Assembly (NCBI RefSeq): GCF_004010195.1
Contig: NC_057753.1
Coordinates: 11,730,050-11,769,587 of the forward strand
Source of the DNA: Chiloscyllium plagiosum
Lineage: Eukaryota
DNA length: 39,538 nucleotides
Direction: 5' to 3'
Made by a program: the position numbers and the translations under genes
The notes under the pieces: model-generated
The model's input: the letters and a program-made list of their open reading frames with translations, nothing else
Databases searched by the model: none
What the model was told of the DNA's origin: nothing
Part shown: piece by piece, positions 3,473-23,995 of the stretch
Numbering within the stretch: position 1 is the first letter of the stretch
Layout of the letters: each line of letters begins with the position of its first letter

Positions 3473-3588
3473 GTTTAGATCAGAGTGGTGCTGGAAAAGC
3501 ACAGCAGGTCAGGCAGCATCCGAGGAGCAGGAAAATCGACATTTAGGGCAAAAGCCCTTTATCAGCCCTTCTTTTCCAGCATCACACT
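3441..3588 (-). mobile_element. Penelope-like terminal repeat (degenerate hammerhead) with short inverted arm, inserted in CR1
   Basis: GTGAGGACTGCAGATGCTGG...CAGCAGGTCAGGCAGCATC; flanked by imperfect duplication CTTGATCAGATGAGC / CTTAACCAGATGGGC. Confidence 0.75.
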
Positions 3589-5297: not shown

Positions 5298-5405
5298 GGT
5301 GCGGGTGACCCGTTAGACAGTCAGTTGAAGCCACACTCAATCTCTATCCTCTGTGACTGATGTGCTGCTTTTCTTCGGCTGTGTAACTGGTCAGAGCTTT
5401 TTCCA

Positions 5406-5609
5406 GGAGAAAGTGAGGACTGCAGATGCTGGAGATCAGAGCTGAAAATGTGTTGCTGGAAAAGCGCAGCAGGTCAGGCAGCATCCAAGGAGCAGGAGAA
5501 TCGACGTTTCAGGATTCCTGAAGAAGGGCTCATGCCCGAAACGTCGATTCTCCTGCTCCTTGGATGCTGCCTGACCTGCTGCGCTTTTCCAGCAACACAT
5601 TTTCAGCTC
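5406..5609. mobile_element. Fold-back Penelope-derived insertion with TSD
   Basis: Perfect 72-bp inverted arms 5439-5510 / 5538-5609; TSD TCAGAGCTTT(T/C)TCCA at 5391-5405 and 5608-5622. Confidence 0.85.
5518..5545 (+). ncRNA. Minimal type I hammerhead ribozyme core (Penelope family A)
   Basis: CTGAAGA-A-GGGC-TCAT-GCCC-GAAA-CGTC; palindromic ACGT helix III; stem I weak. Confidence 0.65.
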
Positions 5610-6009
5610 AGAGCTTTCTCCACCCTGGAATACTCTCACTCAGGTCATGTATTTTCAGTCTCAGCAAAGTTTGAAATCATTTCCCCGCAGGCAGAACCGA
5701 GAAATGACTCTCTCTTTCCACGTTCAGACGCCTTTGATCTTCACCTCTTGATGAATGCAGTCACTCTGAAAGGTGTTAATGTGATGATGGGGGTTGACCT
5801 CCCTATCTCCAGTGCCCTGCAAAAGGAGTTTATAAACAGTCCTCACTTCCAGCACAAATCTTACTCTTACACACTCGTCCTTCCCCTCTGGGCTGCATTG
5901 AAAAAAAAAACAACAAAGTGCTGGATAATTCTTCTCCTTTGAACAGACTGGTGCACTTGGAAGGCAATAAAGATGGTGCTGGTACCACAACATGCATCTA
6001 CACAAAGAT

Positions 6010-6375
6010 GGGGATCGCGCATGCGCCCTATGGGGCAGCCTTTGCGTTGTTAATGCACCCGCGTAAAACGGGGCCATCACAATTGGCAGTAACTCCGGCC
6101 AATAGGGCGGAGAGGGGCGGGGCCAGACCCCGCGTGGGAGCGGCTCGCCCTCCAACCAATCAGAGTGAATGGAGGCGGCCGCAAGCGGGGAGGTCCTCCA
6201 ACCAATGAGAATAAAGGTGGGCCGGTCCTCCAACCAATCGAAGCAAAGCGGCTGGATTAAAACTAGGGTGGGAGGGAAACTGGTCCGCCAACCAATCCAA
6301 GTAAAACGGGCTGGGCCTCCAGCCAGTAGCAGGCAACGGGGCGGGGCTGGTCCTCCAACCAATGGGAATGAATCG
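6010..6375 (-). promoter_or_regulatory. CpG-rich promoter of ZNF-A with CCAAT array, GC boxes and NRF1-like site
   Basis: CCAAT at 6099, 6156, 6202, 6234, 6292, 6359; GGGGCGGGG near 6114 and 6338; GCGCATGCGC near 6018. Confidence 0.75.
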
Positions 6376-6444
6376 GGAAACAAAGCCAGAAGTTAAAAAT
6401 CACCCAACACCAGGTTTTCGTCCAACAGGTTTATTTGGAAGCGC

Positions 6445-6473
6445 TAGCTTTCGGAGCGCTGCTCCTTCATCAG
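6445..6473 (-). ncRNA. Minimal hammerhead core (family B), stem I mismatched
   Basis: Reverse complement CTGATGA-A-GGAGC-AGC-GCTCC-GAAA-GCTA. Confidence 0.6.
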
Positions 6474-6511
6474 GGGGTTGTGGAGTACACGATCATAAGA
6501 CACAGAATTTA

Positions 6512-6787
6512 TTAGATTACATTACAGTGTGGAAACAGGCCCTTCAGCCCAACAAGTCCACACCGACCCGCCGAAGCGCAACCCACCCATACCCCTACAT
6601 TTACCCCTTACCTAACACTACGGGCAATTTAGCATGGCCAATTCACCTGACCTGCACATCTTTGGACTGTGGGAGGAAACCGGAGCACCCGGNNNNNNNN
6701 NNNNNNNNNNNNNNNNNNNNNNNNTGAACCCTGGTCTCCAGCGCTGTGAGGCAGCAGTGCTAACCACTGTGCCACCGTGCCGCCCAC
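6512..6787 (-). mobile_element. HE1 SINE (left copy of head-to-head pair; contains N gap)
   Basis: Reverse complement of HE1 from TTAGATTAC tail to CCGCCCAC head. Confidence 0.9.
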
Positions 6788-6794
6788 AAAGTTA

Positions 6795-7117
6795 GTGGGC
6801 GGCACGGTGGCACTGTGGTTAGCACTGCTGCCTCACAGGACCAGAGACCCGGGTTCAATTCCCGCCTCAGGTGACTGTGTGGAGTTTGCACGTTCTCCCC
6901 GTGTCTGTGTGGGTTTCCTCCGGGTGCTCCGGTTTCCTCCCACAATCCAAAGATGTGCAGGTCAGGTGAATAGGCCATGCTAAATTGCCCGTAGTGTTAG
7001 GTAAGGGGTAAATGTAGGGGTATGGGTGGGTTACGCTTCGGCGGGTCGGTGTGGACTTGTTGGGCCGAAGGGCCTGTTTCCACACTGTAATGTAATCTAA
7101 TCTAATGTAATCTAATC
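6795..7117 (+). mobile_element. HE1 SINE, full length (right copy)
   Basis: A box TGGCACTGTGG, B box GGTTCAATTCC, V-domain, (TAATC)n tail. Confidence 0.92.
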
Positions 7118-7524
7118 TTATAGCAAGTTTACAGTGTGATGCAAGTGAAATCATACATTGAAAAATACCTTGATTGTTTGTTAAGTCTCTCATCTGTTAG
7201 AATGACCATGATAGTTTCACTCCTTTGATATGTAAATCACAAAACTTTTTTTTAGAAGTAACATTCGCAGGTTAGTTTTAACAATTGGTGTCAGCCCAGA
7301 TAAGATCTTAAGATGTTGAAGGTGTCTGTCCCCTGTGTTTTGTTGTCTGTGCCATAATGTTTAGACTGATTCTAATCTAAGAAGTGAGTTGACAGAGTCT
7401 TACATGGATTCATGCAGTTTTTGAGCAAGGTACAATGTAACTCTGCAAGTACAAATTCACCCCACAAACGTATATGTGGACATGTGGGATTTTGGGGTTT
7501 TTTTTCAACCAAACTCATACACGC

Positions 7525-8520
7525 TGATCAGATATCTAAATTAACCTAGCCCCATCTGCCAGCACTTGGCTCACATCTCCCTCAACCCTTCCCATTCATA
7601 TACCCATCCAGATGCCTTTTAAATAGGGGAAGCAATGGCCAGGTGGTATTATCACTGGACTGTTTATCCAGAGACCCAGCTAATGTTCTGGGAATCCAGG
7701 TTGCTAGGGCAGATAGTGGAATTTGAATTCAATGAAACAAGATCTGGAATTAAGGGTCTAACAATGACCGTGAATCCATTGTCGATTGTCAGGAAAACCC
7801 ATTTGGTTCACTCATTTCCTTTAGGGAACGAAACTGCCATGCTTACCTTGTCTGACCTACATGTGACTCCAGACCCAAAGCAATGTGGTTGACTCTTAAC
7901 TGCCCTCTGGGCAATTAGGGATGGGCAATAAATGCTGTGCCCAGCCAGTGGTGCCCTCATCCCATGAATGAATAAAGAAAGCAAAAATATTGTAATTGTA
8001 CCAGCCTCCACCACTTTTTCTGGCAGCTCATTCCATACATGCACCACACTCTGCATGAAAGAGTCACCCCTCATGTCCCTTTTATATCTTTCCCCTCTCA
8101 CCCTGACCTTATGCCCTCTAGTTCTGGACTCACCCACCCCAGGGAAAAGACCTTGTCTATTTACCCTATCCATGCCCCCTCATGATTTTATAAACCTCTA
8201 TAAGGTCACCGCTCAGCCTCCAATGCTCCAGCCTCTCCCCGTAGCTCAAACCCTCCAACCCTGGCAACATCCTTGTAAATCTTTTCTGAACCCTTTCAAG
8301 TTTCACAACGTCATTCGGGCAGAAGGGAGACCAGAATTACACACAGTGTTCCAGAAGTGGCTTAACCAATGTCCTATACAGCCGCAATATGACCTCCCAA
8401 CTTCTACACTCAGTGCGCTGACTAATAAAGACAAGCGTACCAAATGCCTTCTTCGCTATGCTGTATACCTGTATACCTCCACTTTCAAGGAGCTATGATC
8501 TCGCACTCCAAGATCTCTTC
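7525..8520 (-). mobile_element. CR1/HER1 LINE 3' fragment
   Basis: Minus translation SRTRGH..VWNELPE; same 3' tail as other copies. Confidence 0.85.
7626..7985 (+). mobile_element. Second tRNA-derived SINE family nested in CR1
   Basis: TGGCCAGGTGG A-box-like head; tail GGGCAATTAGGGATGGGCAATAAATGC...A-rich; flanked by AAATA duplication; homologous to 26229-26490. Confidence 0.7.
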
Positions 8521-8825
8521 ATTTCAGATGTATCTTAAATGACGTTTAAGCAATTAAGGACTGACAATAATTCCTAGCCAGCAATGCCCTTATCCCAAAA
8601 ATAAATTCAGAATCTCATCCCAGTTGTCTCAGCCTGTGGATCCATAGCAATGTGCTTGACTCTGAATCTGCTGTCTGCCCCAATTAGAGAAGGGAAATGA
8701 ATCCCATGAACGAATAAAAATCAAGTCGTCAGAACACAAATTCCTCAACCACTTCACAATCCACTACTCTGTCCCTGATCTCCCGTTGTCATTCCAAAAT
8801 CCTAAAGCATTTTGTCACATCACAA

Positions 8826-9307
8826 CACGGTGGCTCGGGGGTTAGTGCTGCTGCCTCACAGCACCAGGGACCCGGGTTCGATTCCAGCCTCGGACAACTG
8901 TCTGTGTGGATTTGCAAATTCGCGTGGGTTTCCTCCAGGTGCTCCGGTTCCCTCCCACAATCCAAAGATGTGCAGGTTAGGATGGATTGGCCGTGCTAAA
9001 TTACTCATAGTGCCCAGGGATGTGCAGGTTAGAGTGGATTGGCCGTGCTAAATTACCCATAGTGCCCAGGGATGTGCAGGTTAGAGTGGATTGGCCAAGG
9101 TAAATTACCCATAGTGCCCAGGGATGTGCGGGTCAGGGTGGATTGGCCATGCTAAATTCCCCATAGTGCCCAGAGATGTGCAGGTGAGGTGCATTTGTCA
9201 GGGATAAATGTAGAGTAATGGGGAATGGGTCTGGATGGGTTAATCTTCAGTGGGGCAGTGTGGACCTGTTGGGCTGAAGGGCCTGTTTCCACACGGTAGG
9301 GATTCTA
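8826..9307 (+). mobile_element. HE1 SINE with internal 52-bp tandem expansion (4 units plus a partial)
   Basis: GATGTGC unit starts at 8967, 9019, 9071, 9123, 9175. Confidence 0.88.
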
Positions 9308-9399
9308 AGCTCAGAAGAATGACTGTCTGACTGAATGAATACAACAGCTGATACATTGAGTGAATGAATGAATACCATGAAACTCCTAAATGCTTAGCC

Positions 9400-9600
9400 A
9401 TCTTTCCTTAGAATGCCTCCAATCCAGCTTTCCGCCCCGCGACAGTTCTCCAACCAATGTCTTGTCGTGAGTGACATTCTCCGGGACGGTGACACAGGTA
9501 AAGCCACCATCCCCGTTCTTCCTGACGTCTCTGCAGCCTTCGACGAGGTTGAACGCACCATCCACCCAATGCATCTCATCCGATGGCTCCCAATTCAGCG
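9400..9600 (+). mobile_element. L2-clade LINE RT remnant
   Basis: SDILRDGDTGKATIPVLPDVSAAFDEVE resembles NDIL...LLDLSAAFDTVD. Confidence 0.6.
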
Positions 9601-9644
9601 TTCTTGACAACGGAGCTTCGTTTTGAATCAACTTTAAAAGAGGC

Positions 9645-10452
9645 CAAGTCGCAGAGCACAGAAACGGGCCCTTTGGCCCAACCAGTCCGTGCCGACCCTA
9701 ATCCCACCTAAACTAGTCCCATCTGCTTGCTCCTGGCCACTCGTTCATGTCCTTATCCAAATGTCTTTTAAATGTTGTAAGTGTACCCGCATCCACCACT
9801 TCCTCCGGCAGATCGTTCCACGCGCAAACCACTCTATATAAAAAAAGGTTGCCTCACATCTTTTTGAAATCTCTCTCCTCTCGCCATGAAAATTAGATTA
9901 GATTAGATTACAGTCTGGAAACAGGCCCTTCGGCCCAACAAGTCCACACCGACCCGCAGAAGCGAAACCCACCCATACCCCTACATTTACCCCTTACCTA
10001 ACACTACGGGCAATTTAGTATGGCCAATTCACCTGACCCTGCACATCTTTGGACTGTGGGAGGAAACCGGAGCACCCGGAGGAAACCCACGCAGACACGG
10101 GGAGAACGTGCAAACTCCACACAGTCAGTCGCCTGAGGCGGGAATTGAACCCGGGTCTCAGGCGATGTGAGGCAGCAGTGCTAACCACTGTGCCACCGTG
10201 CCGCCCACTTTGTGCCCCTTTGTCTTGAAAGCCCCCATCCTCAGGGAAAGACACCTGCCATTCACCTTATCTGCGCCCCTCATGACTTTCTAAACCTCAA
10301 CACTCCAGTGAAAAAACTCCCAGCCTCTCCTGATAACTCAAACCCCAGCAGTATCCTGGTAACTCTCGTCCGAACCCTCTCCAGCTTAATAATATCCTTC
10401 CTATAACATGCACACAGTACTCCAGAAGAGGCCTCACCAATGTCTGGTACGA
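9645..10452 (-). mobile_element. CR1 LINE 3' fragment interrupted by HE1
   Basis: CR1 tail GAAACGGGCCCTTTGGCCCAAC; ORF2 C-terminal similarity on both sides of the SINE. Confidence 0.75.
9893..10208 (-). mobile_element. HE1 SINE, full length
   Basis: (TTAGA)n tail through CCGCCCAC head. Confidence 0.92.
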
Positions 10453-10838
10453 GTTAGGACAAGCTTATCTTCCCTGAAGCAAACGACAGCAACAAACCCA
10501 GGTAATTGATTTACAGATTAACCCAGTCGACATTTACTTTCCTTTGTTACCGGTGTTGAGAACGAGTGAAGGACTTCCATCAGTTTTCACAGCACCAACT
10601 CTTGGTCTTTAATCTCCGTCCAGTTCCTGACCGTCACGTAACCTCGCTCTGTGTCCCCGTGAACAATGCTCACTTCACTCAACAGTGTGTTCACTCGCCC
10701 GTTTTTATCACAAAGCTGCGACATTCAGTTCGAACGGAGTCTCCTACATGAGCAGTTTCGAGGCTTCCCTTGTCTGCGACGAGCCTTTCGTAACAGATTT
10801 GATTAACTCCCCGCGTTACGCAAAAGCCACTCGCCGCA

Positions 10839-11261
10839 TCACTCATGAGCCTGTTGGTGTTTCAGCAGGTGGGATAGCTGAGCGAATCCCTTCCTGCACA
10901 CAGCACAGGCGAACGGCCGCTCCCCGGTGTGAAGCCGCTGGTGTATCAGCAGGTTGCACGACTGAGAGAATCCCTTCCCGCACACAGAGCAGGTAAATGG
11001 CCTCTCGCCGGTGTGAATGCGCCCGTGTGTCTCTAGGTGCTGCAGGCGAGTGAACCCCTTCCCACACTCGGGGCAGACGAAGGGACTTTCCCGGGTGTGG
11101 GTACGCTGGTGTCTGTGCAGGTGGGATGAGTCAGCGAACCCTTTCCCACACTCGGCGCAGGTGAACGGCCTCTCCCCAGTGTGACTGCGTCGATGGATCT
11201 CAACCTCAGATGGGGTTCGGAATCCCTTCCCACAGTCCCCACATTTCCACGGTTTCTCCAT
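10839..11261 (-). CDS. C2H2 zinc-finger protein ZNF-B, 5 fingers (alternative in-frame ATG at 11348)
   Basis: Open frame [14 protein letters not shown]...HQQAHE*; five complete fingers with canonical linkers; acceptor CTGACAG ending at 11648. Confidence 0.88.
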
Positions 11262-11617
11262 AGTGTGAGGATTGGGCTGATGCTGGTCGTCTACATAAAG
11301 AACACACACATCAGTTTCCCCCCTGCTATGAATGATATAAATATTCATCAGCCTGTGTAAGCTTTTTCATCCAGTCCCTCTCACTCAGGATTGTAACTGG
11401 TTCAAGGCCCTTCCACAGTCAGTGCGCTGAAACATTCTTACTCCTGAGTGTACGGGCATCTTGGTACTCTTGCAGTCTCATCAATGTTTGAAATCTTTCC
11501 CACAAACAGAACAGACAAAGGTACTCCTCCCAAAGACTGATGGTACTCAGGTCCGTTTGAATCAAGTGACTCCGCCAGATCTTGAAGTGATGTTTCCAGT
11601 CTGGGAATACTCTCATT

Positions 11618-11891
11618 TTAAGATTCTGCAAATGGAGATTACAAACCCTGTCAGTACGGGATAGAAATGCGTGAACAGACATCTCTAGTTTCTGCAGAAC
11701 ATGGTTTTCCCTTCTTCCCGATAGCTGAAAATGTCCCGTCCCACATACCCTCTCTTAAGATTCTGCAAATGGAGATTACAAACCCTGTCAGTACGGGATA
11801 GAAATGCGTGAACAGACATCTCTAGTTTCTGCAGAATATGGTTTTCCCTTCTTCTCGATAGCTGAAAATGTCCCGTCCCACATACCCTCTC
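11618..11891. repeat. 137-bp direct tandem duplication including the ZNF-B splice acceptor
   Basis: 11618-11754 repeated at 11755-11891 with about 2 substitutions. Confidence 0.9.
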
Positions 11892-11934
11892 CCTCTGCCT
11901 CCACCCATCGCTTTCCATCAATCCATTTCCCCCA

Positions 11935-11958
11935 TCTCTCTCTCTCTCTCTCTCTCTC
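11935..11958. repeat. (TC)n microsatellite
   Basis: Visible dinucleotide run. Confidence 0.9.
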
Positions 11959-12156
11959 TTTCTATCTCCCTCTATACTTGGGATGGGTTCAACTCTCCAG
12001 CCCTTCTTATGCAGAATGGAAGTTAAATCGATCATTTTCTCTTCTGATTCCAGTGACCCTAAAACTCCCAGTGAATCAAAATGGGTCATTTTATCTGTCA
12101 CGGGAAAAGCCTGCAGGTTTTAGTATCTTCGAACTGACTTGCTCACAAATGCTATC

Positions 12157-12313
12157 ATAGAATCCCTACAGTGTGGAAGTAGGGCATTTGACCCATCAAG
12201 TCCACACCGCCCCTCTGAAGAGCATCCCACCCCTCTACCTATCTCCTGTAACCTTGCACTTCCCATGGCTAATCTACACATCTTTGCACTGTGGGAGGAA
12301 CCCACGCAGACAC
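12157..12313 (-). mobile_element. HE1 SINE 3' half
   Basis: CCCTACAGTGTGGAA tail and V-domain, head missing. Confidence 0.75.
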
Positions 12314-12439
12314 AGAACATAGACTTCACACCTAATGTTTAAAAACCTGAGCTACCTTGAGAATGTAATTTAAAAGCAGTTCTGGGATTTATATATCAAA
12401 GAACAGAAACCAGCAGATCCCATTATAAAAGATGAAATT

Positions 12440-12607
12440 AGGAGAAAGTGAGGACTACAGATGCTGGAGATCAGAGCTGAAAAATGTGTTACTGGAAAAG
12501 CGCAGCAGGTCAGGCAGCATCCAAGGAGCAGGAGAACCGACGTTCGATTCTCCTGCTCCTTGGATGCTGCCTGACCTGCTGCGCTTTTCCAGCAACACAT
12601 TTTTCAG
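12440..12607. mobile_element. Fold-back Penelope-derived insertion with TSD
   Basis: 64-bp inverted arms 12477-12540 / 12544-12607 (2 mismatches); TSD TAAA(A/C)GATGAAATT at 12426-12439 and 12608-12621. Confidence 0.85.
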
Positions 12608-12703
12608 TAAACGATGAAATTCTCAATCAAGGATTGTTACTGTACATGACACTGGACTCCTGTGGCTCTATATTCTGTGAACATGATCTTAACCTCCATA
12701 ACC

Positions 12704-12738
12704 CACCTGATGAAGGAGCAGTGCTCTGAAAGCTAGTG
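12704..12738 (+). ncRNA. Minimal type I hammerhead ribozyme (family B)
   Basis: CAC-CTGATGA-A-GGAGC-AGT-GCTCT-GAAA-GCTA-GTG: stem I CAC/GTG, stem II, palindromic AGCT. Confidence 0.7.
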
Positions 12739-12852
12739 CTTCCAAATAATCCGGTTGGACTATAACCCGATGTTGTGTGATTTTTAACATAGGACATTAC
12801 AGCGCAGTACAGGACCTTCGGCCCTTGATATTGTAGCGACCAGTGAAAAGGG

Positions 12853-13030
12853 GGAGAAGATGCAAACTCCACCCAGACAGTCGCCCGAGGGTGGGATCAA
12901 ACCCAGGTCCCCAGCACTGCAAAGCAGCAGTGCTAACCACTGTGCTGCAATGTTATTGCACACCTCTGGACCAGGTGGGATTTGAACCCCAGGTCTCCCT
13001 ACCCTAGAGGTAGAGACATTATCACTGCAG
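12853..13030 (-). mobile_element. HE1 head fragment plus an adjacent tRNA-derived SINE head
   Basis: B-box-like sequences on the minus strand (GGTTTGATCCC, GGTTCAAATCCC). Confidence 0.6.
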
Positions 13031-13269
13031 GAGCCTACCTGTAGCCTTGGGGCCTCCAGCTTGCGGGTGAATCTTCCCCATCCACCTTCCAGGGTTTCCG
13101 TCTTGATCAGAGCTTTACTGATTCCCACGCCCCTCCCAAAGTGTTACTCCTTATTTATTATTTCCCTCTCCCCTGCCTCCTCGAATTGCACGGCTAGAGT
13201 TGACTCCAGTGTCTCTCTGCCCCCAACCCCCAACATCCCACCGCCTCTGACTGCAGTAGCCATCGCTCC

Positions 13270-13425
13270 CTGTACCAGCTGAGCACAGCTTCCGGGAACA
13301 GTGTCGCGCACGCTCAGTCAGGCCCCCTGGGGCGGAGACCCGGGACTCGATGCACTTGCGCGGCACAACCGCGGCGATGGCGATAGGCCGTATTCACACG
13401 CGCGGGGCGTGCTGGGTAACCTTCC
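13270..13425. promoter_or_regulatory. CpG-rich putative bidirectional promoter between ZNF-B (-) and ZNF-C (+)
   Basis: Local CpG cluster, GGGGCGG box, candidate donors on both strands (TGG|GTAACC + near 13416; CAG|GTAGGC - near 13039). Confidence 0.5.
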
Positions 13426-13624
13426 CTCCATGTGTTACATTGCAAATGCAAGAATCTCTGGCAGGGCTGGGAGCAAGAGATTCCTGAATTTTTTTTAAAC
13501 CAGTTCCGAAGTTCGAGGGTGGATGTTTGAGACTATCAATCAGCACAGCCCGCGCGAAACCCGCAGCAAATAATTTATCTCCTGGGAAACATTTATGTTG
13601 TCCACTGAATATTGTCAGTGTTTT

Positions 13625-13965
13625 GGTTCAAAGACAGAACTAGCTGGAGAAACGCAGACGGTCTGGCAACATCTGTGTAGAGAAAGCAGAGTTAACGTTT
13701 CGAGTTCAGTGACCCTTCTTCAGAACTTCATCATCCTCATGACCTGACCCACCGGTCAATCTTCCTTCTCACCTATTCACTCCGCCCTATCATCTTCTCT
13801 CAGCTACCTTCTTCCCAGCCCCACCTCCCAATCATTTATCTCTCCACTCTGCAGGCACCCTGTCTTTACTCCTGATGAAGGGCTTTTGCCCGAAGTGTCG
13901 ATTTTCCTGCTCCTCCGATGCTACCTGACCTGCTGTGTTTTTTCCAGAACCACTCTAATCTTGAC
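13625..13965. mobile_element. Two Penelope terminal repeats in opposite orientation around a 3' UTR piece
   Basis: Minus-strand family C repeat 13625-13727; plus-strand family A repeat ending CCAGAACCACTCTAATCTTGAC. Confidence 0.65.
13691..13726 (-). ncRNA. Minimal type I hammerhead ribozyme (family C)
   Basis: Reverse complement GTT-CTGAAGA-A-GGGT-CACTGA-ACTC-GAAA-CGTT-AAC: stem I GTT/AAC, palindromic ACGT. Confidence 0.7.
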
Positions 13966-14183
13966 TGTTAGGCAAGGCAGTTCCAGGATTCTGACCCAGA
14001 GACAGCCGGTATACTTCCACCCTGTCTTTACTCCTGATGAAGGGCTTTTGCCCGAAATGTCGATTTTCCTGCTTCTCCGATGCTACCTGACCTGCTGTGT
14101 TTTTTTTCCAGAACCACTCTAATCTTGACTGTTAGGGAAGGCAGTTCCAGGATTCTGACCCAGAGACAGCCGGTATACTTCCA
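13856..14183 (+). repeat. 162-bp tandem duplication, each unit with a hammerhead-like core (13872-13899, 14034-14061)
   Basis: CACCCTGTCTTTACTCCTGATGAAGGGCTTTTGCCCGAA at 13856 and 14018. Confidence 0.9.
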
Positions 14184-15364
14184 AGTCGGGACAGTGAGTG
14201 GCCCGGATGGGGAGCTTGCGTGGGCTGGTGTTTTCATCTGTCTGCTGCCCCCCTGTCTTTCTAAATGCAAGCGGTCAGGAGGTTGGAAGGTGCCGTTTAA
14301 GACCTTTAGTGAATTTCCGAAGTGTGTTTTGTTAGCGCTTGACAGCGCCAGGGACCCCAGTTCGATGCCAGCCTTGGGGGCAACTGTCAGTGTAGAGTTT
14401 ACACGTTCTCCCACAGAGTCCAGACATGTGCTGGCTCGGAGGAGTAGACAATGCGGAGTTATGCGGGCAGGGTGTGGGTCTGGGTCGGATGTCTCCCGAG
14501 TCTGTACAGACTGTAAGGCATCAGTGGTTGAGAGAGTGGATGCATGTGCATGTTATTTTGTCCTGGATGGTTATAGAGTGAGAGAGGTCTCCAGCACGAG
14601 AGGAAGGCCCTTTGGCCCATTGAGACAAAAACAAGCAACTATTCTACTCCTATTTACCTGCACTTGGCTCACAGCCTTGTTTGCCTTGACATTGTTAGTG
14701 CATATCTAAATACTTCTTAAATGTGACGAGGATTTCTGCCTCCACCACCCTTAGAAGCAGCGGGAGCTGAGATGACTGAGCTCTAACAACCACAACCAAC
14801 TTCATTTGTGCCAGGTATGAGTCCTACAAGCGAAGCGTTTTCATTCCCCAAATTCCTCAGTTTTGACAGGAATCCTTGATGCTGCACTCAGTCAATTCTC
14901 ACCTCACCTCTGGAATCCAGCTCTCTTGACCCTGTTTGAACTGAGATTGTGATGAAGTCAGGAACTGAGTGGCCCTGGCAGAATCCAAACTGGCTGTCAC
15001 TGAGCAGGTTATTGCTGAGCCAGAGCTGCTTGATAGCTCTGTTGATGACAACTTCCATCACTTTCCTGCTGGTGGAGGGTAGGCTGATGGAGTGTCCAGT
15101 TTAGTTTGTCCTGCCTTTTTTGTGTACAGGACACATTTGGGCAACTTGCCACTGAGTCAGGTTTGTGCCAGCGTTTTGGCTAGACCGGAAAAGCTGAGCT
15201 AGGGCTGAGGTATATCTGGAGCAGAATTCTTCAGCGTTGGTAAAATCCTGTTACCAGGCCTGGGGAGGGGAACGGAGGATTTGTAAACACCAAACTCACA
15301 CCCACAAAAAGTGTTGGTCTCTTTTTGAATTTCTAACCTAAAGTTGTCTACAATCTTCCTGCAG

Positions 15365-15578
15365 AGTAGAACCAGAAGATTGACAGATGTGAAGGTGAGG
15401 TCAAACGCCACGTTGAGATTTGACTGGGGTCACTCATTTCTTCAGGATCTGAACGTCATAAGTCTTGGAACATGGAAGGACAAAAGGTTTGTCTGTTCTG
15501 CCTATGGGTGGGGGATTTCAAGTGTTAGTTTGAATGGAAAAGCGCTGTGATTCACAAACGTGGTCAGGTCAACTCCAG
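15365..15578 (+). other. Probable non-coding exon derived from a ZNF exon leader (fossil finger)
   Basis: Acceptor CTTCCTGCAG (15364), donor CAG|GTAAGC (15579); GAACATGGAAGGA..TTTGTCTGTTCTG matches ZNF-B and ZNF-D leaders. Confidence 0.5.
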
Positions 15579-15744
15579 GTAAGCTGCGTTCAGTTCTGAG
15601 CAATTAGCCTCAGTCGAGGTCGCTTTAGAGGGAGTGCAACTGGTTCACCTGGTGACCTCCCAACTGCAAGTGCTAAAATACAAAGGGACATTTCACAAAC
15701 ATGTCATTGTGGCACAGAAGGGGTTTACCTTAAAACGCGTGTAC

Positions 15745-15980
15745 CAACAGATTCAAGAACAGCTTCTTCCCCGCTCTTATTGGACTTCTGAATGGACCTC
15801 TCCAATTACAAACGTAATGTTGACCTTGCTCTTTATGCACCGCCTCTGAAGCTGTAACATTGTATTCCTCCCTCTGACCTATTACCCTAATTATCTCTGT
15901 ATGGTATAATCTGCCGTACTATATGCAAAACAAAACTTTTCGCTGTACCTAGTTATTTGTGGCAACACTACATCAAATTA
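15745..15980 (+). mobile_element. LINE 3' end remnant (Rex1/L2-like)
   Basis: ACCAACAGATTCAAGAACAGCTTCTTCCCC (TNRFKNSFFP) then UTR; similar to 16720-16880. Confidence 0.5.
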
Positions 15981-16481
15981 AAAATTCAGCCCATTGAGTC
16001 CAAGTACTGGGGACAGAGAGTCTGAGTGTGATGGGGTTTTACAGCTTTGGGAGAGTGAGAGGGGATAAATATTGATAACAATTAGATTAGTTGGTAAATT
16101 ACTAACTCGGTCTGACCGTGATGATTTCTGTAATGCCCTTCTACAGGGAATTCAAAAGGGGAGAGGTTACATTCAGAAGGCTCGAATCAAACAACACAGC
16201 AAGTCACTTGAGACATCAGGACCTGAATATCATCAGCCATTGCATATGGAAGGGGAAGTGCGTATCTCTTTGCTCTGACTTTGAGGATGCATTTTAAGGG
16301 TCAGTGTGGCTGGAAAAAGTACTGAGGGACGGACACACACACACGTGTGAGAGTGTTCCAGTGCAGCAGTGAGCGTGGAAGGACCTTTAACCAGTTACAC
16401 AGCCTGAAGAAAATAAAACACACCATTCAAAGTGTCTGCACACAAGGATTGAACCTGAAGAGACAGATGGACACCAGCTCC

Positions 16482-16718
16482 ATGGTGAAACTGTGGAGAC
16501 GCGCGGACTGCGGGAAGGGATTCAATCACCCATCTCGGCTGGAATTTCACCGTCGGGCTCACACTGGGGAGAAGCCGTGGGAGTGCGGGGACTGCGGGAA
16601 GGGATTCAATTATCACTACCTGCTGGAAACCCATCAACGCAGCCACACCGGGGAGAGGCCGGACATGTGCTCCGAATGCGGGAAGGCGTTCGCTCAGTCG
16701 GCCTGCCTGATGTCACAC
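16482..16718 (+). pseudogene. Truncated C2H2 zinc-finger pseudogene ZNF-C
   Basis: [10 protein letters not shown] (first Cys lost), one intact finger, third finger broken at LMSHP by a LINE-tail-like sequence; acceptor CTTCTACAG at 16146. Confidence 0.75.
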
Positions 16719-18409
16719 CCTTCTGAAAGCAGCTCTCAAATTTCAAAACCTATTGTTGAGCTCGCCCTGTGTGCACCTTCTCCGCACCTGTAACATCACA
16801 TCCCTCGCTCTGTTCTATAACCCTCTGATCTCTGTGCAGCACGATCTGCCTGTACTGAAAACTTTTCACCGGCCTGTCAGTGTCTGGATTATTAAGCAAC
16901 AGGACTCAGATTATGCATGTAACAGGAAGCTCGTTATTAATGTAATTGGTCTCTGGGCATTGCCGTGACAGGGCATTAATGACGACACAAAAGCGGTTGG
17001 AAAGGCTAGAATTAGCCAGGATTAACCCAAGAGTCCACAGAGGGTTGAGAGAGTGGATGTGGGAGTACTGCGTGTGAAAACAGGCTCTGGCTATACATAG
17101 AGAGTAAAGAAAGTGGGTTATTTTACCAGTGAAGCCAAAAGGGTGCAGAGGAGTCGTGATAAGGATTCAAAGTCATGAACAATTCCAACAGAGTAAGTGA
17201 GGAGAAAGTGTCTCCGGTGCGACACCGAGATATCGAAGGCTCTAGGCTAAGTGCTGGAACGTGGGATTAGAATACAGAGGAATCTCAACATTCTGAATAT
17301 TAATTGCCTGAATTTTGGACTATCTGAGGAAGATCTCAAGGTCTCATAAAAGCGTTCCATCAAAGAGGTGTTACCAACACTGGTGTGACAATCATATTTT
17401 CTGTTGACAATGATTAAAAGTTGAAGTCGGCTTACTGAAGTGCTGCCAAGAACAGTCCTGGGCATTGTTGGGAGCACAGGCACCACTTCCAAATGACTGA
17501 CCTCCCTCCCTCCCCTCTCTCTCTCCAAACAAAGACAGACAGAGTGACGATCTGGGCAAATTCAGAACACTGAATATTCTCAAATACAGACCCCTGATCA
17601 TCTCCCCAACATTGTACAGGGCAGAGCGGAACCTTGTTGACTGGCCCACTGTGCTGCTGCCTACTCTCCTGAATGGGGAGTGGACTTGCTCTGTCAATCC
17701 CACTGAAGTGAAGCAGCGGCGGGGAGAGGCTACAGCAATGCTGCAGGTTCCTTGCACACAAGTGTGTATCTGCTCAGGAACAAACCCCTGAGACACAGGG
17801 AGGGAGCAAGGCAAGGCAGAGTGAGGAAAACTCCCGAGTCCCAGAGGAAAGGCATTGAATCAGTCATCTGAATAATCAATTGTCCGTACGAAATACTGCC
17901 CGCCCATCTCATTCAGATAATCAGATCCTCTGCAGTTAGCTGCTTGCTTTAGACTGGCACAGACCCCCGATGGGCTGAAGGGCCTTTATCTGTGCTGTAG
18001 ATCTCCATGGCTCTGAATAGGAGGGGACTTTGCAGAAGAAAGGAAGATTAGAGAAGGGGCAGTAGTTTGTGTAATGGTGGGGTTGAGAGTTTTGTTTCCC
18101 CCCCCCCCTCAGGTCGGGGGAAGACGGTGAATGTGAAGATGAAAGAGAGACAACCACAAACATTGCCTGTGAATGTGGGCGTTTGCACAGTCATTGGTTT
18201 TGTAGGAGTAAGGTTGAGAGACTCGGAATCGGGCCTCGTTGGAAAGGTGAGCTCTGACAGGTTATAACTGGAGAGAAACAGGAGAAAGGTACGAGCGGAG
18301 GTTTTCAAAAAAATACCTTTGGGGGGGGAAAGCTGCCTGTTGATTCATGGTATCTGATCGGATGGCCTCAAGGTAGTCTTAGTGACACATTTCATGAGCT
18401 CCTGACACT

Positions 18410-19372
18410 TGTGACAGGGACCAGCCCACCCCCTCAAAACATATTAAGCAGACAGCCTAGACCCAACCCTTTTCTTATTTTAAAATGCATCGCATTCCAG
18501 ATGCAATTTGATTGGTCAAACTACCAGGCTTGAAGCAAAACACACTTTATTCTTATACTATAGTTCAAAGAAAGAAAACATTGGAATAACTTAACTCTAT
18601 GAGAAAACTCAACAGAATAATGGATGACTTTACGACTGAATAATCACGGTTCCAGGATAGTATAACGTTTCATAAACACACCCCCTTGGCAAAGGCAAAC
18701 TTAGTAAAATAGATTGTCTCGATTAGATTAGCTTAGATTCCCTACAGTGTGGAAACAGGCCCTTTGGCCCGACAAGTCCACACCAACCCTCCGAAGAGTA
18801 ACCCACCCAGACCCATTTCCCTCTGACTAATGCAACTAACACTATGGGCAATGTAGCTTGGCCAATCCATCTGATCTGCAAGTTTTTTTTTTAGGTTGTG
18901 GGAGGAAACCGGAGCACCCAGAGGAAACCCACCCAGACACGGGAGAATGTGCAAACTCCACACAGATCGTGTTACCCAAGGCTGGAATCAAACCTGGGTC
19001 CCTGGCGCTGTGAGGCTGCAGTGCTAACCAACGAGCCACCATGCAATTCTACAGACCAGTAGGCAAAACATCAAGAGAAGCCTCTGAGACTGAGAGGGTG
19101 GCAGGGACAGATGTACTGCAGCTTCCAAACTCGATTTCAAGACCCCAGCAACTGCTCCTAAAAGACTACAACCAATAATCCTGGCTCTGGGGTGGGAGCT
19201 TGATCTCACCCATTCAGGCTGCTTCTATTGTTCCAACTTCAAAACAAACAAAAAAAAATCCCAAGCCCTCTCAAGCTGTTTACTTTATTGGATTCAAATA
19301 GACTTTTCGGTACTCCTGTCTTAAAACCTCTCTTCAAAACAAAAATCCAGGACCTGTTAAAGCCATCATACA
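18410..19372. mobile_element. Possible solo LTR with nested HE1
   Basis: TGTGA...ATACA termini around about 640 bp of non-SINE sequence; no clear TSD. Confidence 0.3.
18721..19043 (-). mobile_element. HE1 SINE
   Basis: Tail, V-domain and head in reverse. Confidence 0.88.
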
Positions 19373-19877
19373 ATGAGAGTGGGGGAGACCCAGAGAGCAC
19401 AGAAACAAGAGTAGATCATTCTATTGCACCGGCTCTGCCATTCAGTTAGATTATGCTGATCATTTTCCACCTGCATTATTCCCATCATGTCATCAGTGCC
19501 CAGGAAACTATTGATTTCTGTCTCAAACATTCTCAGTCATTGGAGCATCCAGAAACCTCTGGTTTGAGAATGCCAAAGAGTCGACATCCTCTGAGTGGAA
19601 AAAGGTCGTCCTTAAACGACTTGCTTCTTACTACATCCACTGGTTCCACACGCTGAAGCCAGGGGAAATGTACTGTGAACATCCACTTTGTGAGAATCTT
19701 GTATAAATGAGATCATCAATCATGTTATGAAGCCCAGCTGATGGTAATGGTGCACAAATAGATCATAGGTTTTATTTTTTGGTGTTTAGTTAGGATGGTA
19801 GTCACTGAATATATTCATATGAGGCTGCCAATGTTCTTTTAACAAAATAGTTGATTACACAACAAAAATCCTGTATA

Positions 19878-20303
19878 TATAGAGTCATAGAGATGTTCAG
19901 CATGGTAACAGACCCTTCGGTCCAACCCATCCATGCCAAACAGATATCCCAACCCAACATAGTCCCACCTGCCAGCACCCGGCCCATATCCCTCCAAACC
20001 CTTCCTATTCATATACCCATCCAAATGCCTCTTAAATGTCACAACTGTACCAGCCTCCACCACTTCTTCTGGCAGCTCATTCCATACACGTACCATCCTC
20101 TGCCTGAAAACGTTGCCCCTTAGGTCTCTTTTATATCTTTCCCCTCTCACCTTAAACCTATGCCCTCTAGTTCTAGACTCCCCAACCCCAGGGAAAAGAC
20201 TTTGCCTATTTATCCTATCCATGCCCCTCATAATTTTGTAAACCTCTAGAAGGTCACCCCTCAGCCTCCGATGCTCCAGGGAAAACAGCCCCAGCTTGTT
20301 TAA
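19878..20303 (-). mobile_element. CR1/HER1 LINE 3' fragment
   Basis: SRTRGHRFKVRGERYKRDLRGNVF..VWNELPEEVV. Confidence 0.9.
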
Positions 20304-20359
20304 GCCATCTCCCAGTGATGTCCTTTGCAGATACTCAATCCCAGTACAGTGCCATCTGA

Positions 20360-20730
20360 CCCATTTTTAAATGTTGCAGCTATAGCTCATCCCGAATTGC
20401 CCTCCAGGTGGTAATGAGCTGTCTTCCTGAACATCTGCAGATCTTGTAGGTGTCAGATCACCTATAATACTGTCAGGAAAGAAGTTCCAGGGTTTTGACC
20501 TGGTGACGGTGAAAGAATTTGCAATGCACTTCCACGTTCAGGGTGGAGTGTAGTTGGGAAGGAACTTGCAGAAGGCGGGGTTCCCACATGCTTGCTCTCC
20601 TTGTCCTTTGAGATGACAGAGATCAAGGGTTTGGAAGTTGGAAGGAGTCGTCTTGATTGCACTGCAGTTTGGAGATGGTGTTTCTGCCACGGTCCATCGG
20701 TGAGGAGGCAGTGAATGTCGAAAATGGTGG
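20360..20730 (-). mobile_element. Old LINE 3' region sharing a tail with the second SINE family
   Basis: Reverse complement GGGCAATTCGGGATGAGC; related fragments at 13965-14310 and 38420-38560. Confidence 0.5.
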
Positions 20731-20890
20731 ATGGAGTGGGCTTTACATCTCTTCTGTTTCATTCACCTACAGAAGCTTTTACCATTGACCTTTTGTTTCC
20801 ACAGAAGCTTCTATCCACCTTCTGTTTTTGCCTTCATCGGTTTCTTGGCTGGATTCTAAATTGCTCCCATTCCCCTGCGTACCATGTCTT

Positions 20891-21200
20891 ATTAGAATCC
20901 CTACAGTGTGGAAACAGGCCATTTGGCCCAACCAGTCCACACCGACCCTCCGAAGAGTAACCCACCCAGACCCATTTCCCCCTGACTAATGCGCCTAACA
21001 CTAGGGCAATTTAGCAAGACCAATTCACCCTGAGCTGCAAATCTTTGGACTGTGGGAGGAAACTGGAGCACCCGGAGGAAACCCACGCAGACGCAGCGGG
21101 GAGAATGTGCAAACTCCACACAGACAGTCACCCCCAAGGCTGGAGTCGAACCTGGGTCCCTGGCGCTGTGAGGCAGCAGTGCTAACCACTGAGCCAGTGT
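20891..21200 (-). mobile_element. HE1 SINE
   Basis: Full reverse-orientation copy. Confidence 0.88.
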
Positions 21201-21551
21201 TCTTACAATCATACAATCCTTTGATCTAATTCAATCTTTAAGTCCTTTTGTTGTCTGAAGTAGATTTATTTTTCCTGTCGCATACAAAATCCTCTAAGAA
21301 ATGATTTTTTTTTGTCGACCGGGTAGTGCTTCTTCAAGTAAAAGCTGCTGCTGGTTGATTTTCAAGCCGTTTAGTGTATCTAGCCAATCCGTCGTAACAA
21401 ATTGCTGCTCACACCGTTCATTCCAAATCTGTACAACAGAAACTGTGCGTGCATATCACATCAAATTAATTAAACACTTTACAATGTCATGACCATTAAT
21501 TCCCAAAGCAACCCTCGACATTTTCACGGAAAGGTGGGCGCTGCAGGGAGT

Positions 21552-21870
21552 GATTAGATTAGATTCCCTACAGTGTGGAAACAGGCACCTCGGCCTGACC
21601 AGTCCACACCGACCCTCCGAAGAGTAACCCACCCAGACCCATTTTCCCTCTGACTAATGCACCTAATACTACGGGCAATTTAGTACAGCCAATTCACCTG
21701 ACCTGCACAGCTTTGGACTGTGAGCGGAAACCGGAGCACCCGGAGGAAACTCACGCAGACATGGGGAGAACGTGCAAACTCCACACAGACCGTTGCCCAA
21801 GGCTAGATTTGAACCTGGGTCCCTGGTGCTGTGAGGCAGCAGTGCTAACCACTGAGCCACCGTGCCGCCC
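21552..21870 (-). mobile_element. HE1 SINE
   Basis: Full reverse-orientation copy with (GATTA)n tail. Confidence 0.9.
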
Positions 21871-23151
21871 CAAATGTGTAGTGCAGTGCATTATTTCCCC
21901 CTCCAACTCTATTTTGATTTAGTCCCTGCCCTCCCCTTCACTGTTTGATCACACAGCATTGCCCTTTGATGTGAAGGGCACTGCTTGTCACTGGCCACTC
22001 TTTTCACAGTGGCGGAAATTGAATCAAGATTTGTACACCCCCTGTTGCCTTTTCACTGTGTCTCTCACTCCTGCAGACAGACAACATAGGTGCTGGGGGA
22101 AAAAAGAAACAACAAAAAAAAAATACAAAATTTCCCAAAGCTTCCTGAACAGTAAGGTTACTAATTGCCCATTTTCATTACATAATATGAAATCCGAAAC
22201 AGCTTGATCCCCATGATGCTCGACTCCAGAAACCTATCTCACACAAACTCCAGAAATTTGCCCTGCGCGGTATTGGTACTGGATAGCTTTACCCAGTCTA
22301 TCTGGAAACTGAAGTCACCCCTTGTTACCAATGGGACAGGCACACCAGTTCAGACTAGGCGTTCAGACAAGGTCGTCACATCTCCCCGGGGTGGAATTGT
22401 CTCATTCTCAACCTGGACTTTTAGTTTTGTTGCTGTCAATGATTTCAAAAACTGTGTTCTGTGGTTATAGGACAACTTGAGAAATTGATGAGAGGAGACA
22501 GGAGTCCAGCCTACGATCGTTTATTTCTTGCGCGTGCAGCGAGACCTGGTCTTATTACCGTGAAGTGTAAAACCTCTTCGGGTGGGTTACAGAAACCTCA
22601 GATTCTTACACAGAACGTCACAACATTTAAACACTACTTCCCACACTGCTCTACCTGGGTGTCTCACATTATCTGCTGTTTTATACAAAGGTCAACGCTC
22701 TGCTAGTATGACTTCTCGGCTCCTCGTCTCGACTGTCTTTGTGTCCTGATTGTTATGTACATTTGTTGCGGTTCCCAGTTGCTTTGCTATTACTAATGAC
22801 AGGACGAAAGCTTTAACCCTTGGCTCACTCAACCCCTTCAGCGTCCCCCACTCGGCCTAGCCCAAGGTAGTGAACTTACTGGTAATGCATTTCCCTTTAT
22901 GTCACCCATTGGCCAGCTATCAAGTGTAGGGGTTGGAGAGGCACTTCGGTATGCCATCTGTACAGAATGGACCAGTGCAATAAGCCCCCTGCTCTCCGAC
23001 CCTGCGTTCTCCAACTCTCAACTCCTTACCATTCTCCTGTGTGTCCTTTCGGTGCTTTCGCCCAAGTAGTTCAGGTATACGACCAATACCAGCTGAGCAG
23101 TAATCAGAACAGATGATCCTAACACATGGATAGATCTGTTCATTTGATCCC

Positions 23152-23995
23152 CAGTGACAGAGCAGTATGGCATGGAAACAGACCCTTGGGTCCAACCAGT
23201 CTCAGCTGAGCATAATCTCAAAGTAAAGTAGTCCCACTTGCTTGCACTTGGCCTATCTCTCTCCAAACGTTTCTCCTGTAAATACCTTTTAAATTGTTGT
23301 AACTGCACACACATCCACTTCCTCTGAAAGTTCAGTCGACTCGCAATCCATTTTCCATGTGAAAAACAATTGCCTCTCGTGTCTTTTTAAAAAATGTCCC
23401 CCCCTCACCTTAAACAATGGCCCCCTAATCTTGAAATGGCCCACCCTAGGGAAAAGACTCTCGAGATTCACCTTCCACGCTCCAGTGAAACAGGTCCCAG
23501 CCCATCCAGCATCTCCTTATAGCTCAAAACCCTCTGTCCCCGGCAACATCCTGACACATCTCTTCAACTGAATAATATCCTTCTGATAACAGGGCACAGT
23601 ACGGCAGAAGAGACCTCACCAACGTCCTGTACAACTGCAACGTGACGTTCTCAGCTCCTACACTCAAAGGTGTGAGCAATGAAGAAAGTGAGGACTGCAG
23701 ATGCTGGAGATCAGAGCTGAAAATGTGTTGCTGGAAAAGCGCAGCAGGTCAGGCAGCATCCAGGGAACAGGAGAATCGACGTTTCGGGCATGATTCCTGA
23801 AGAAGGGCTCATCCCCGAAACGTCGATTCTCCTGCTCCTTGGATGCTGCCTGACCTGCTGCGCTTTTCCAGCAACACATTTTCAGCTCTGAGCAATGAAG
23901 GCAAGCGTGCTAAGTGCCTTCTTAACCACCCTGTCTATGTGCGACGCAAAGAGTTATGTACCTGAACCCCTCGGTCTCTCAGTTCTACAACAGCA
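23152..23995 (-). mobile_element. CR1 LINE 3' fragment with nested fold-back element
   Basis: CR1 tail CATGGAAACAGACCCTT and degenerate ORF2 C-terminus. Confidence 0.75.
23685..23888. mobile_element. Fold-back Penelope-derived insertion with TSD and hammerhead core (23797-23824)
   Basis: 77-bp inverted arms 23712-23788 / 23814-23890 (2 mismatches); perfect TSD TGAGCAATGAAG at 23673-23684 and 23889-23900. Confidence 0.88.

Follow-up and report, generated by a model that had tools for sequence, protein, structure and literature searches.

The hammerhead-like motifs in the window (the whole stretch of 39,538 nucleotides of DNA that was analysed) are very probably pieces from the 3′ ends (pseudo-LTR tails) of Neptune-like Penelope retrotransposons, which bear the known minimal type I hammerhead and are passengers here. 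According to this explanation, the tails would have been left as short, 5′-truncated, and often inverted insertions, and every intact tail would begin with a minimal type I hammerhead. In the RNA of the Penelope-like elements (PLEs), two copies would pair through the 4-base palindrome to form helix III, exchanging their helix I strands, and the dimer would cut after NUH, probably aided by the element's protein, as published work suggests. The window copies would be mostly decayed passengers leaving the host genes unaffected: the two youngest would be silenced by their own inverted arms, and the remaining ones would either run antisense to the ZNF transcription units or fall beyond them, except a weakened copy at 14034.

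A comparison of the tails using nhmmer gave 15 loci in the window, comprising 11 of family A, 3 of family B, and 1 of family C. The three ZNF genes, the hammerhead cores, and the other tails are listed below; the remaining family A tails, at 12443..12607, are listed later with the foldbacks.

4659..5312, minus strand: ZNF1, a C2H2 frame, out of finger register past the fifth finger
10839..13124, minus strand: ZNF2, spliced across 11626-13038 (GT..AG)
14595..16793, plus strand: ZNF3, with spliced exons 14595-14814, 15365-15486, and from 16147, and a short finger array
5518..5545, plus strand: family A core within the right arm of the foldback 5408..5607, antisense to ZNF1; stem II of 4 bp, ACGU palindrome, GUC
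23797..23824, plus strand: family A core within the right arm of the foldback 23685..23888; stem II of only 3 bp
14034..14061, plus strand: family A core; intact boxes, palindrome decayed to AUGU
13872..13899, plus strand: tandem twin of the 14034 core, 162 bases upstream; GAAG for GAAA (15.1 is G), core broken
12707..12735 (12704-12738 including helix I), plus strand: family B core; stem II of 5 bp, its 10.1-11.1 pair being G.U; AGCU palindrome, CUA, helix I of 3 bp; antisense within the spliced ZNF2 intron 11626-13038
6445..6473, minus strand: family B core, located upstream of the CpG/CCAAT island 6001-6300; stem II of 5 bp, helix I breaking after 1 bp
13694..13723, minus strand: family C core; stem II of 4 bp, ACGU, GUU, helix I of 4 bp; antisense with respect to ZNF3 and, on the ZNF2 strand, upstream of the CpG island 13201-13500
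3442..3566, minus strand: decayed family A copy within a LINE fragment; both boxes mutated
27578..27674, minus strand: family A tail, decayed; a PLE reverse-transcriptase fragment lies about 65 bases away
31556..31641, minus strand: decayed family A copy; U4 changed to C, palindrome lost; pyrimidine-rich upstream sequence
33225..33300, plus strand: family A copy, decayed, without its 5′ box
29209..29324, minus strand: headless family A tail, old
39357..39446, plus strand: headless family A tail
33636..33808: decayed family B foldback, old

All five cores named in the original prediction (+5518, +23797, +12707, −6473, and −13723) are present, the one at 6445-6473 lying on the minus strand, which had been left unmarked; so are the degenerate copies that it placed near 3540 (−), 27650 (−), 31615 (−), and 33230 (+). 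The +14034 core, its +13872 twin, the A tails at 12443-12607, 29209-29324, and 39357-39446, and the B foldback at 33636-33808 are additional to it. The catalytic boxes CUGANGA and GAAA, with U16.1 and H17, were found free of mismatches in 6 of the 11 audited copies. Three features characterize these intact cores. One is the extra A between positions 9 and 10.1, which all six have. Another is the G10.1-C11.1 pair, found in five of them (12707 has G.U). The last is the helix III palindrome, which has CG or GC at 15.2-16.2 in five and UG in 14034. Helix I has four contiguous pairs in 13723, which is the best-formed copy, three in 12707, and one in 6473; in family A, two pairs are followed by a mismatch and then by 1–3 more. 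The cores thus fit the published consensus of the minimal hammerhead ribozyme (min-HHR): CUGANGAH G..C GAAA, a palindrome, and UH, with a helix I of 2–5 bp, individual published examples having 2 to 6 pairs (PMC4209133).

The window also contains two sets of PLE coding fragments.

27739-27924, minus strand, and 27967-28753, plus strand: reverse-transcriptase palm/thumb fragments, the plus-strand part interrupted by a SINE-like repeat
38740-38887, minus strand, and 38884-39099, plus strand: GIY-YIG endonuclease fragment with a 5′ inversion

Tails of family A are found next to the former and after the latter, the headless tail 39357..39446 being located about 260 bases after the end of the GIY-YIG frame on the same strand, and this arrangement shows that the family A tails belong to PLE terminal repeats. 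In their best-aligned pieces, the reverse-transcriptase fragments show 68–82% identity to the Chiloscyllium proteins P0001 and P0002. The proteins matching the window fragments have RVT_1, GIY-YIG, and a CX4CxxC linker, the GIY-YIG of P0001 scoring 21.7 bits, slightly below the curated cut-off of 22.6 bits. A CX2-5CxxC linker joining the reverse transcriptase to a C-terminal GIY-YIG was found in four of six related proteins, including P0001, and in the frame of L003, a marine contig; the linker stretch is not preserved in the window fragments themselves. Such a linker, assigned to Neptune/Nematis, is a described PLE feature, as are inverted 5′-truncated copies and a one-sided extension of 30–40 bp (PMC8557442). 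Pfam gave no family for the window PLE fragments or the L003 frame, and a homologue search with a frameshifted query piece scored none of 92 candidates.

For family B, a PLE link is visible only on contigs of other organisms. On L003, an endonuclease frame related to that of P0001 (E 2e-15) is followed, about 750 bases downstream, by a core sharing 91% identity with 12704-12738, and L001 has the same core together with an inverted reverse-transcriptase fragment; these sequences suggest that family B is also a PLE tail. Among six metagenome loci, PLE coding sequence occurs in two and is absent from four. The family B and family C patterns each gave 0 matches in viral contigs. Family C has no coding neighbour within the window, and it may belong to the PLEs, judging from the likeness of its tail to that of family A (nhmmer E 2e-6 to 4e-6; 25/31 identical). 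The window tails of A and B gave no nhmmer alignment. Hence, the claim that minimal hammerheads reside in the terminal repeats of three different Penelope families holds within the window for A, is carried for B by another organism's contig, and is indirect for C; as to the families being different, the separation of A from C is incomplete.

Three foldback insertions provide information on how the tails arrived.

5408..5607: foldback of family A tails; flanked at 5391 and 5608 by a 15-bp target-site duplication that has 1 mismatch
23685..23888: foldback; flanked at 23673 and 23889 by a perfect 12-bp target-site duplication
12443..12607: foldback of headless family A tails in the ZNF2 intron; flanked at 12426 and 12608 by a 14-bp duplication that has 1 mismatch

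Duplications of 12–15 bp thus flank all three foldbacks; among 300 random control pairs, 3 had them, including one that overlaps a real insertion. Inversion with 5′ truncation and a one-sided extension of about 31–35 bases are common to the three; in the foldback 5408..5607, which lies inside the region of ZNF1 that corresponds by homology to the spliced last exon in ZNF2/ZNF3, one arm has about 31 extra terminal bases. At 5518 and 23797, the inverted arm is predicted to pair with the cleavage site of its own core: the computed costs of opening the locked cores are 22 and 36 kcal/mol, and the fold computation gave the 5518 cleavage triplet an unpaired probability of about 0 in its context. The structure predicts that such insertions turn off their own ribozyme. 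Tail-only foldbacks that have 12–15 bp duplications, together with a tail of about 31 bases on one side, bear on the PLE insertion mechanism.

The same target-site duplications would also be expected if the tail-only pieces were a non-autonomous element of their own, bounded by hammerheads (retrozyme- or SINE-like) and copied from a short RNA. Both head-bearing foldbacks begin their direct arm 3–5 bases before the core and share their end base, but these informative copies are only two, and the junctions differ among the three foldbacks, as independent truncation and inversion would give. Non-autonomous PLEs have been described for Chlamys, and non-LTR retrozymes, including those of one cartilaginous fish, are reported PLE derivatives (bioRxiv 10.64898/2026.07.22.740005); the window, however, has no tandem array of intact cores, and longer copies with a 3′ UTR and coding sequence exist. 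We consider such an element rather unlikely. A retrozyme array was likewise rejected, the sole tandem, 13872/14034, having one broken core.

Having regarded the motifs as PLE tails, we turn to their relationship with the ZNF genes. The expectation had been that about ten motifs could cut intronic or read-through ZNF RNA. The core is retained in only six, two of which are locked in foldbacks, and cutting of ZNF RNA by these motifs is unlikely on the basis of position, strand, and folding. The cores within the mapped ZNF gene bodies are 5518 and 12707, both antisense; 6473 and 13723 lie upstream of the promoters; and the nearest intact copies of the same family on one strand are at least 8.5 kb apart. 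In the computation of self-dimers, the hammerhead dimer was 8–17 kcal/mol above the best cofold in all six cases, and because of this, the proposed active dimer is predicted not to be favoured without help. Dimers across families were also considered and rejected, since combining A with B, or B with C, gives mismatches in both helix III and helix I.

The 14034 core, which is probably in the sense orientation in the 5′ region of ZNF3, deserves separate consideration. It lies on the plus strand between the CpG island 13201-13500 and the spliced ZNF3 exons, retains both boxes, and costs only 1.4 kcal/mol to present; contigs of run X7 cover 13435-13710 and 14080-14624. Family A RNA is plentiful in run X11, in both mate orientations. 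Of the 829 X11 reads, 826 fit only partly and derive from repeat copies elsewhere, so that the absence of piled-up read ends there says nothing about cleavage; poly(A) reads would in any case not reveal such ends. Run X12 gave 0 matching reads. Related tandem retrozymes, moreover, are under-represented in Xenopus introns and exons (bioRxiv 10.64898/2026.07.22.740005). One conceivable reading is that hammerhead-headed PLE tails are so numerous and so well transcribed in this shark that this lone sense copy is cut in trans through family A RNA or a PLE protein, so that PLE activity would be coupled to the loss of a host transcript and the foldback and antisense copies would be the tolerated forms. 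We regard it as very unlikely; if it were true, a genome-wide shortage of intact, unsequestered, sense intronic copies would be expected. It is likewise very unlikely that the motifs cut intronic or read-through ZNF RNA and tune the genes, most plausibly at 14034 in the ZNF3 precursor, through base pairing in trans to a second family A RNA or assisted by a PLE protein. Against it stand the antisense orientation of 5518 and 12707, the predicted sequestration of 5518 and 23797, and the mismatches between families. Furthermore, the palindrome of 14034 is AUGU, and its sole near neighbour, 13872, has lost A15.1, the pairing of the two consisting of three wobble pairs and one A-U; spliced ZNF2 and ZNF3 RNA was detected in the reads; and the published activity of minimal motifs is low or protein-dependent. 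The motifs would gain greater importance only if solitary copies proved to cut host RNA.

The motifs themselves are not a product of chance. The descriptor search suggested as a check in the original prediction gave, in its strict form (G10.1-C11.1 and NNUH), five matches in the window as compared with a mean of 0.007 and a maximum of 1 in 300 block-wise dinucleotide shuffles, none of which attained that count, the real copies being repeats and hence not independent events. Core 12707 fails the strict descriptor, having G.U at 10.1-11.1. The descriptor matches at −19496, −14860, +16455, and −11351 were rejected, as they lack G10.1-C11.1 or stem II. The alignment for covariation (11 sequences, L001 being omitted since its motif is identical to that of L003) has 91.6% of its cells paired, and 7 of its 10 pairs are altered on both sides, with the reservation that the structure was hand-drawn and five rows were picked by a pattern fixing much of stem II. 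Helix I, which the search pattern leaves unspecified, has all four pairs altered on both sides across lineages, and the covariation score was attained by none of 500 shuffles. The predicted covariation of the stems between families is thus seen, subject to this selection of rows. In the X11 reads from other family copies, the paired base C occurs at 12727 in 43 of 83 and C occurs at 14058 in 20 of 24. An Rfam scan of the window returned 19 matches at E up to 10, none of them to a hammerhead family; its microRNA-type matches on long hairpins were all below the gathering score and were set aside as artefacts of the foldbacks. The absence of an Rfam hammerhead match, the short helix I, and a monomer fold that is not predicted (helix I probability of 0.13 or less) might suggest that the cores are chance look-alikes in ordinary repeats, with no selection for a ribozyme fold, but in view of the descriptor count, the two-sided changes, and the consensus fit, this is scarcely credible.

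The motif class was already described in 2014, and the window adds members in a bamboo-shark-like genome. Cervera and De la Pena (2014, PMC4209133) reported min-HHRs in fishes, coelacanth, Xenopus, turtle, and snakes; one supplement of that paper, which we searched, has no shark, Callorhinchus, or Leucoraja entry. In our literature search, no paper dealing with the hammerheads of shark PLEs came up, and one 2026 preprint gives retrozymes in one chondrichthyan. The present motifs resemble the PLE min-HHRs in CUGANGA with an extra base, G10.1-C11.1, GAAA, the palindromic 15.2-16.2, UH, and a short helix I, and also in having several families per genome, mostly solo copies, and opposite-strand pairs 100–700 bp apart (PMC4209133). 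They differ in that stem II is 4–5 bp, at the short end of the range, and that the family A helix I is mismatched at the third pair. For the Schistosoma minimal motif, monomers are uncut and dimers are cut weakly (PMC4209133).

Animal non-LTR retrozymes (bioRxiv 10.64898/2026.07.22.740005) share the type I hammerhead and the PLE ancestry, and one chondrichthyan case is reported. However, they are defined by at least two consecutive tandem units with complete motifs, whereas the sole tandem here is half-broken. PAc (Poseidon, Anolis carolinensis; Frangieh et al. 2024, PMC11167929) is likewise a hammerhead of a PLE pseudo-LTR and has stems I and II, and its optional tail of 30–40 bp (two reverse-transcription start sites) matches the arm difference of about 31 bases found here. 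It belongs to the Poseidon clade and its motif lies over the ORF start, whereas the elements considered here have a Neptune/Nematis-type linker and an A tail about 260 bases past the frame end. This anole motif is cleaved only with the element's protein, RNA-seq ends at the site being absent (PMC11167929); its activity is thus demonstrated with protein, and the motifs here are known from sequence and folding. Finally, in comparison with the Neptune-clade endonuclease PLEs (Craig et al. 2021, PMC8557442), the window has no full element and the linker is of the Neptune or Nematis kind, but the reverse transcriptase, the CX2-5CxxC linker, the C-terminal GIY-YIG, the inverted 5′-truncated copies, and the one-sided tail are all alike.

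The five hammerhead cores of the original prediction (named by their start positions: 5518 and 23797 in tail family A, 12707 and 6473 in B, and 13723 in C) were all recovered by a plain scan at the predicted coordinates, and a sixth, absent from its list, was found at +14034 (family A). When the window's own copies served as queries, 15 loci were detected, of which family A accounts for 11, B for 3, and C for 1. The prediction of about ten motifs able to cut is not supported: both catalytic boxes are retained in 6 of the 11 audited copies, and two of these six are predicted to be sequestered. A descriptor including G10.1-C11.1 and NNUH was passed by five copies, whereas 300 shuffles averaged 0.007 hits and never exceeded 1; it rejected 12707 because of a G.U pair. 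Since the copies are repeats, this excess excludes compositional noise and does not prove five independent events. Among the 19 Rfam hits at E up to 10, a hammerhead match was absent. Of the three predicted tail families, A and C are homologous (E 2e-6 to 4e-6; 25 of 31 positions identical), and thus there are two tail lineages, one of them two-branched. At 13860-14190, a 162-base tandem duplication containing a family A tail and its flank is in head-to-head orientation to 13723, the copy of family C.

All six intact copies conform to the consensus that PMC4209133 gives in its supplement (core, one extra base, G..C stem II, GAAA, palindrome, UH, and a short helix I), with blemishes in four: a G.U pair at 10.1-11.1 in 12707, a stem II of 3 bp in 23797, a single contiguous helix I pair in 6473, and AUGU in place of ACGU in 14034. 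The cores are members of a previously described motif class, here in a further host. The predicted covariation of the stems between families was borne out in an alignment of the six window copies and five of six metagenome hits, in which, with a structure drawn by hand and a search pattern that fixed much of stem II, 91.6% of the cells are paired and 7 of 10 pairs changed on both sides; the score was reached by none of 500 shuffles. The pattern left helix I unspecified, and therefore helix I is the fair portion of this test: all four of its pairs show both-sided change, and 79.5% of its cells are paired. Differences within families are decay, not covariation. Reads of other copies have the paired base at 12727 in 43 of 83 cases and at 14058 in 20 of 24.

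With 28005-28172 as the query, 76 proteins were retrieved out of 81 candidates; at E up to 0.001, there were 1391 representatives. The long proteins among these relatives bear RVT_1 and GIY-YIG, and the CX2-5CxxC linker, attributed to Neptune and Nematis in PMC8557442, occurs in 4 of 6 relatives checked. The relatives align with the window at 27739-28753 and 38740-39099; the former coding fragments are about 65 bases away from a family A tail, and another such tail follows the end of the latter frame by about 260 bases on the same strand. Family A, adjoined by these fragments, belongs to the Penelope-like elements (PLEs). Near B or C, comparison with 218 proteins found no PLE coding sequence in the window. 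Six metagenome loci carry such a core, two of them with PLE coding sequence. In one (L003), the core is 91% identical to 12704-12738 and lies downstream of a frame related to the endonuclease of P0001, a Chiloscyllium PLE protein (E 2e-15); another (L001) carries the same core plus an inverted reverse transcriptase (RT) piece. Thus, the predicted Penelope terminal-repeat origin holds for A, is supported for B from outside the window by L001 and L003, and is presumed for C. At 27578-28753, a minus-strand RT fragment almost directly abuts a hammerhead tail and RT resumes on the plus strand, where about 20 residues are duplicated; this arrangement looks like a template jump with inversion. A further metagenome locus (L005) carries a methyltransferase-like frame, recognized by eye (540-1214), and, about 260 bases past its end on the same strand, an intact minimal core (1475-1503).

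Five C2H2 frames, surrounded by LINE and SINE-like repeats, were found in the window (their names, like A, B, and C, were coined in the present analysis).

C2H2 zinc-finger frames
4659-5312, minus strand, ZNF1
10839-11366, minus strand, ZNF2
16326-16793, plus strand, ZNF3
25045-25938, minus strand, ZNF4
34568-35539, plus strand, ZNF5

The contigs of two RNA sequencing runs (X1 and X7) carry no strand information. An X1 contig connects 13039-13124 to 11232-11625 across a minus-strand GT..AG intron of ZNF2; ZNF3 shows plus-strand splicing from 14595 on (X1 and X7), and X7 contigs span 13435-13710 and 14080-14624. The finger register of ZNF1 is lost past finger five, and ZNF3, although spliced in two runs, comprises just two to three fingers and its start is decayed; both may be pseudogenes. 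ZNF2 and ZNF3, which are divergent, are separated by the CpG island at 13201-13500, which may serve both as a two-way promoter; a further island (26851-27750) lies ahead of ZNF4. A repeat fragment of the window has its nearest proteins in Chiloscyllium punctatum (84-87% identity), which marks the genome as bamboo-shark-like. Other repeats are tandem arrays at 1-1394 (37-base unit), 8967-9189 and 33897-34263 (a 52-base unit present twice, 25 kb apart), and 36636-37063 (89); a 182-base inverted repeat of SINE-like copies (6511-7101, 98% complementary) adjoining an assembly gap and enclosing a perfect hairpin (6750-6832); LINE fragments at 31298-31738 and 2605-3271 with a GDSL-esterase-like frame and RVT_1 pieces; and a LINE RT fragment (3177-3472) with a 148-base duplication taking in the final 30 bases of a PLE tail.

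Strand, position, and folding mostly contradict the prediction that the motifs could cut RNA of the zinc-finger cluster. Since the spliced ZNF2 intron is on the minus strand, 12707 is antisense within it; 5518 is antisense to ZNF1 in a last exon placed by homology; and 23797 lies about 1.2 kb past the ZNF4 frame end on the opposite strand. Cores 6473 and 13723 are upstream of the CpG islands 6001-6300 and 13201-13500, likely promoters, so that only read-through RNA would contain them. From the plus-strand splicing of ZNF3 and the X7 coverage, 14034 is probably sense within the ZNF3 precursor. The X7 contigs fork exactly past an AG at 14594/14595, which suggests an alternative acceptor; 14034 may then belong to an intron in some ZNF3 transcripts and to an unspliced 5′ region in others. 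As for folding, 5518 and 23797 lie within foldback insertions.

Foldback insertions
5408-5607, flanking duplication of 15 bp
12443-12607, flanking duplication of 14 bp
23685-23888, flanking duplication of 12 bp

In 5518 and 23797, the cleavage triplet is predicted to pair with the inverted arm (unpaired probability about 0), and the predicted cost of presenting the core is 22 and 36 kcal/mol, respectively, versus 1.4-7.9 for the other four. The palindrome of 14034 is AUGU; its twin, 162 bases distant, lacks A15.1, which hammerhead cleavage needs, and the nearest intact partner of 14034 in the same family and strand is 8.5 kb off and predicted to be sequestered. Core 14034 is the sole remaining candidate for cutting zinc-finger RNA, and a weak one. 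The raw reads, poly(A) single-cell data derived from repeat copies elsewhere, are uninformative on cleavage.

The window copies are very probably inert leftovers. In the parent-element RNA, two motifs would pair via ACGU or AGCU and swap helix I strands, and the dimer, probably aided by the protein of the element, would cut after GUC, CUA, or GUU; the intact family forms are somewhat likely to be capable of such cleavage. Self-dimer calculations, six in all, placed the hammerhead dimer 8-17 kcal/mol above the best cofold. These poor predicted dimers agree with published low or protein-dependent cleavage: a minimal PLE hammerhead is reported not to cut as a monomer and to cut weakly as a dimer (PMC4209133), and the PAc hammerhead to cut solely with the element's protein, with RNA-seq ends absent at its site and cleavage dispensable for insertion in vitro (PMC11167929). 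The prediction correctly recognized a described hammerhead class.

Regarding the foldbacks, 300 random pairs included three with equally good duplication scores; two of these fall in finger repeats, and the third overlaps a genuine insertion. A thin literature search yielded no statement on target-site duplications of such PLE pieces. Homology to the last exons of ZNF2 and ZNF3, which are spliced, places the 5408 insertion within the 5′ part of the ZNF1 last exon, so that ZNF1 RNA would bear a hairpin (5391-5622; about -175 kcal/mol) before the finger frame, which could block scanning or draw A-to-I editing irrespective of any ribozyme. In each foldback, one arm is about 31-35 bases longer than the opposite arm. 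Inverted 5′-truncated copies and a 30-40 bp tail at one end are described as PLE features in PMC8557442, and the tail is ascribed to two reverse-transcription start sites in PMC11167929; in both the inversion and the one-sided extra arm, the foldbacks agree with the PLEs as described in PMC8557442.
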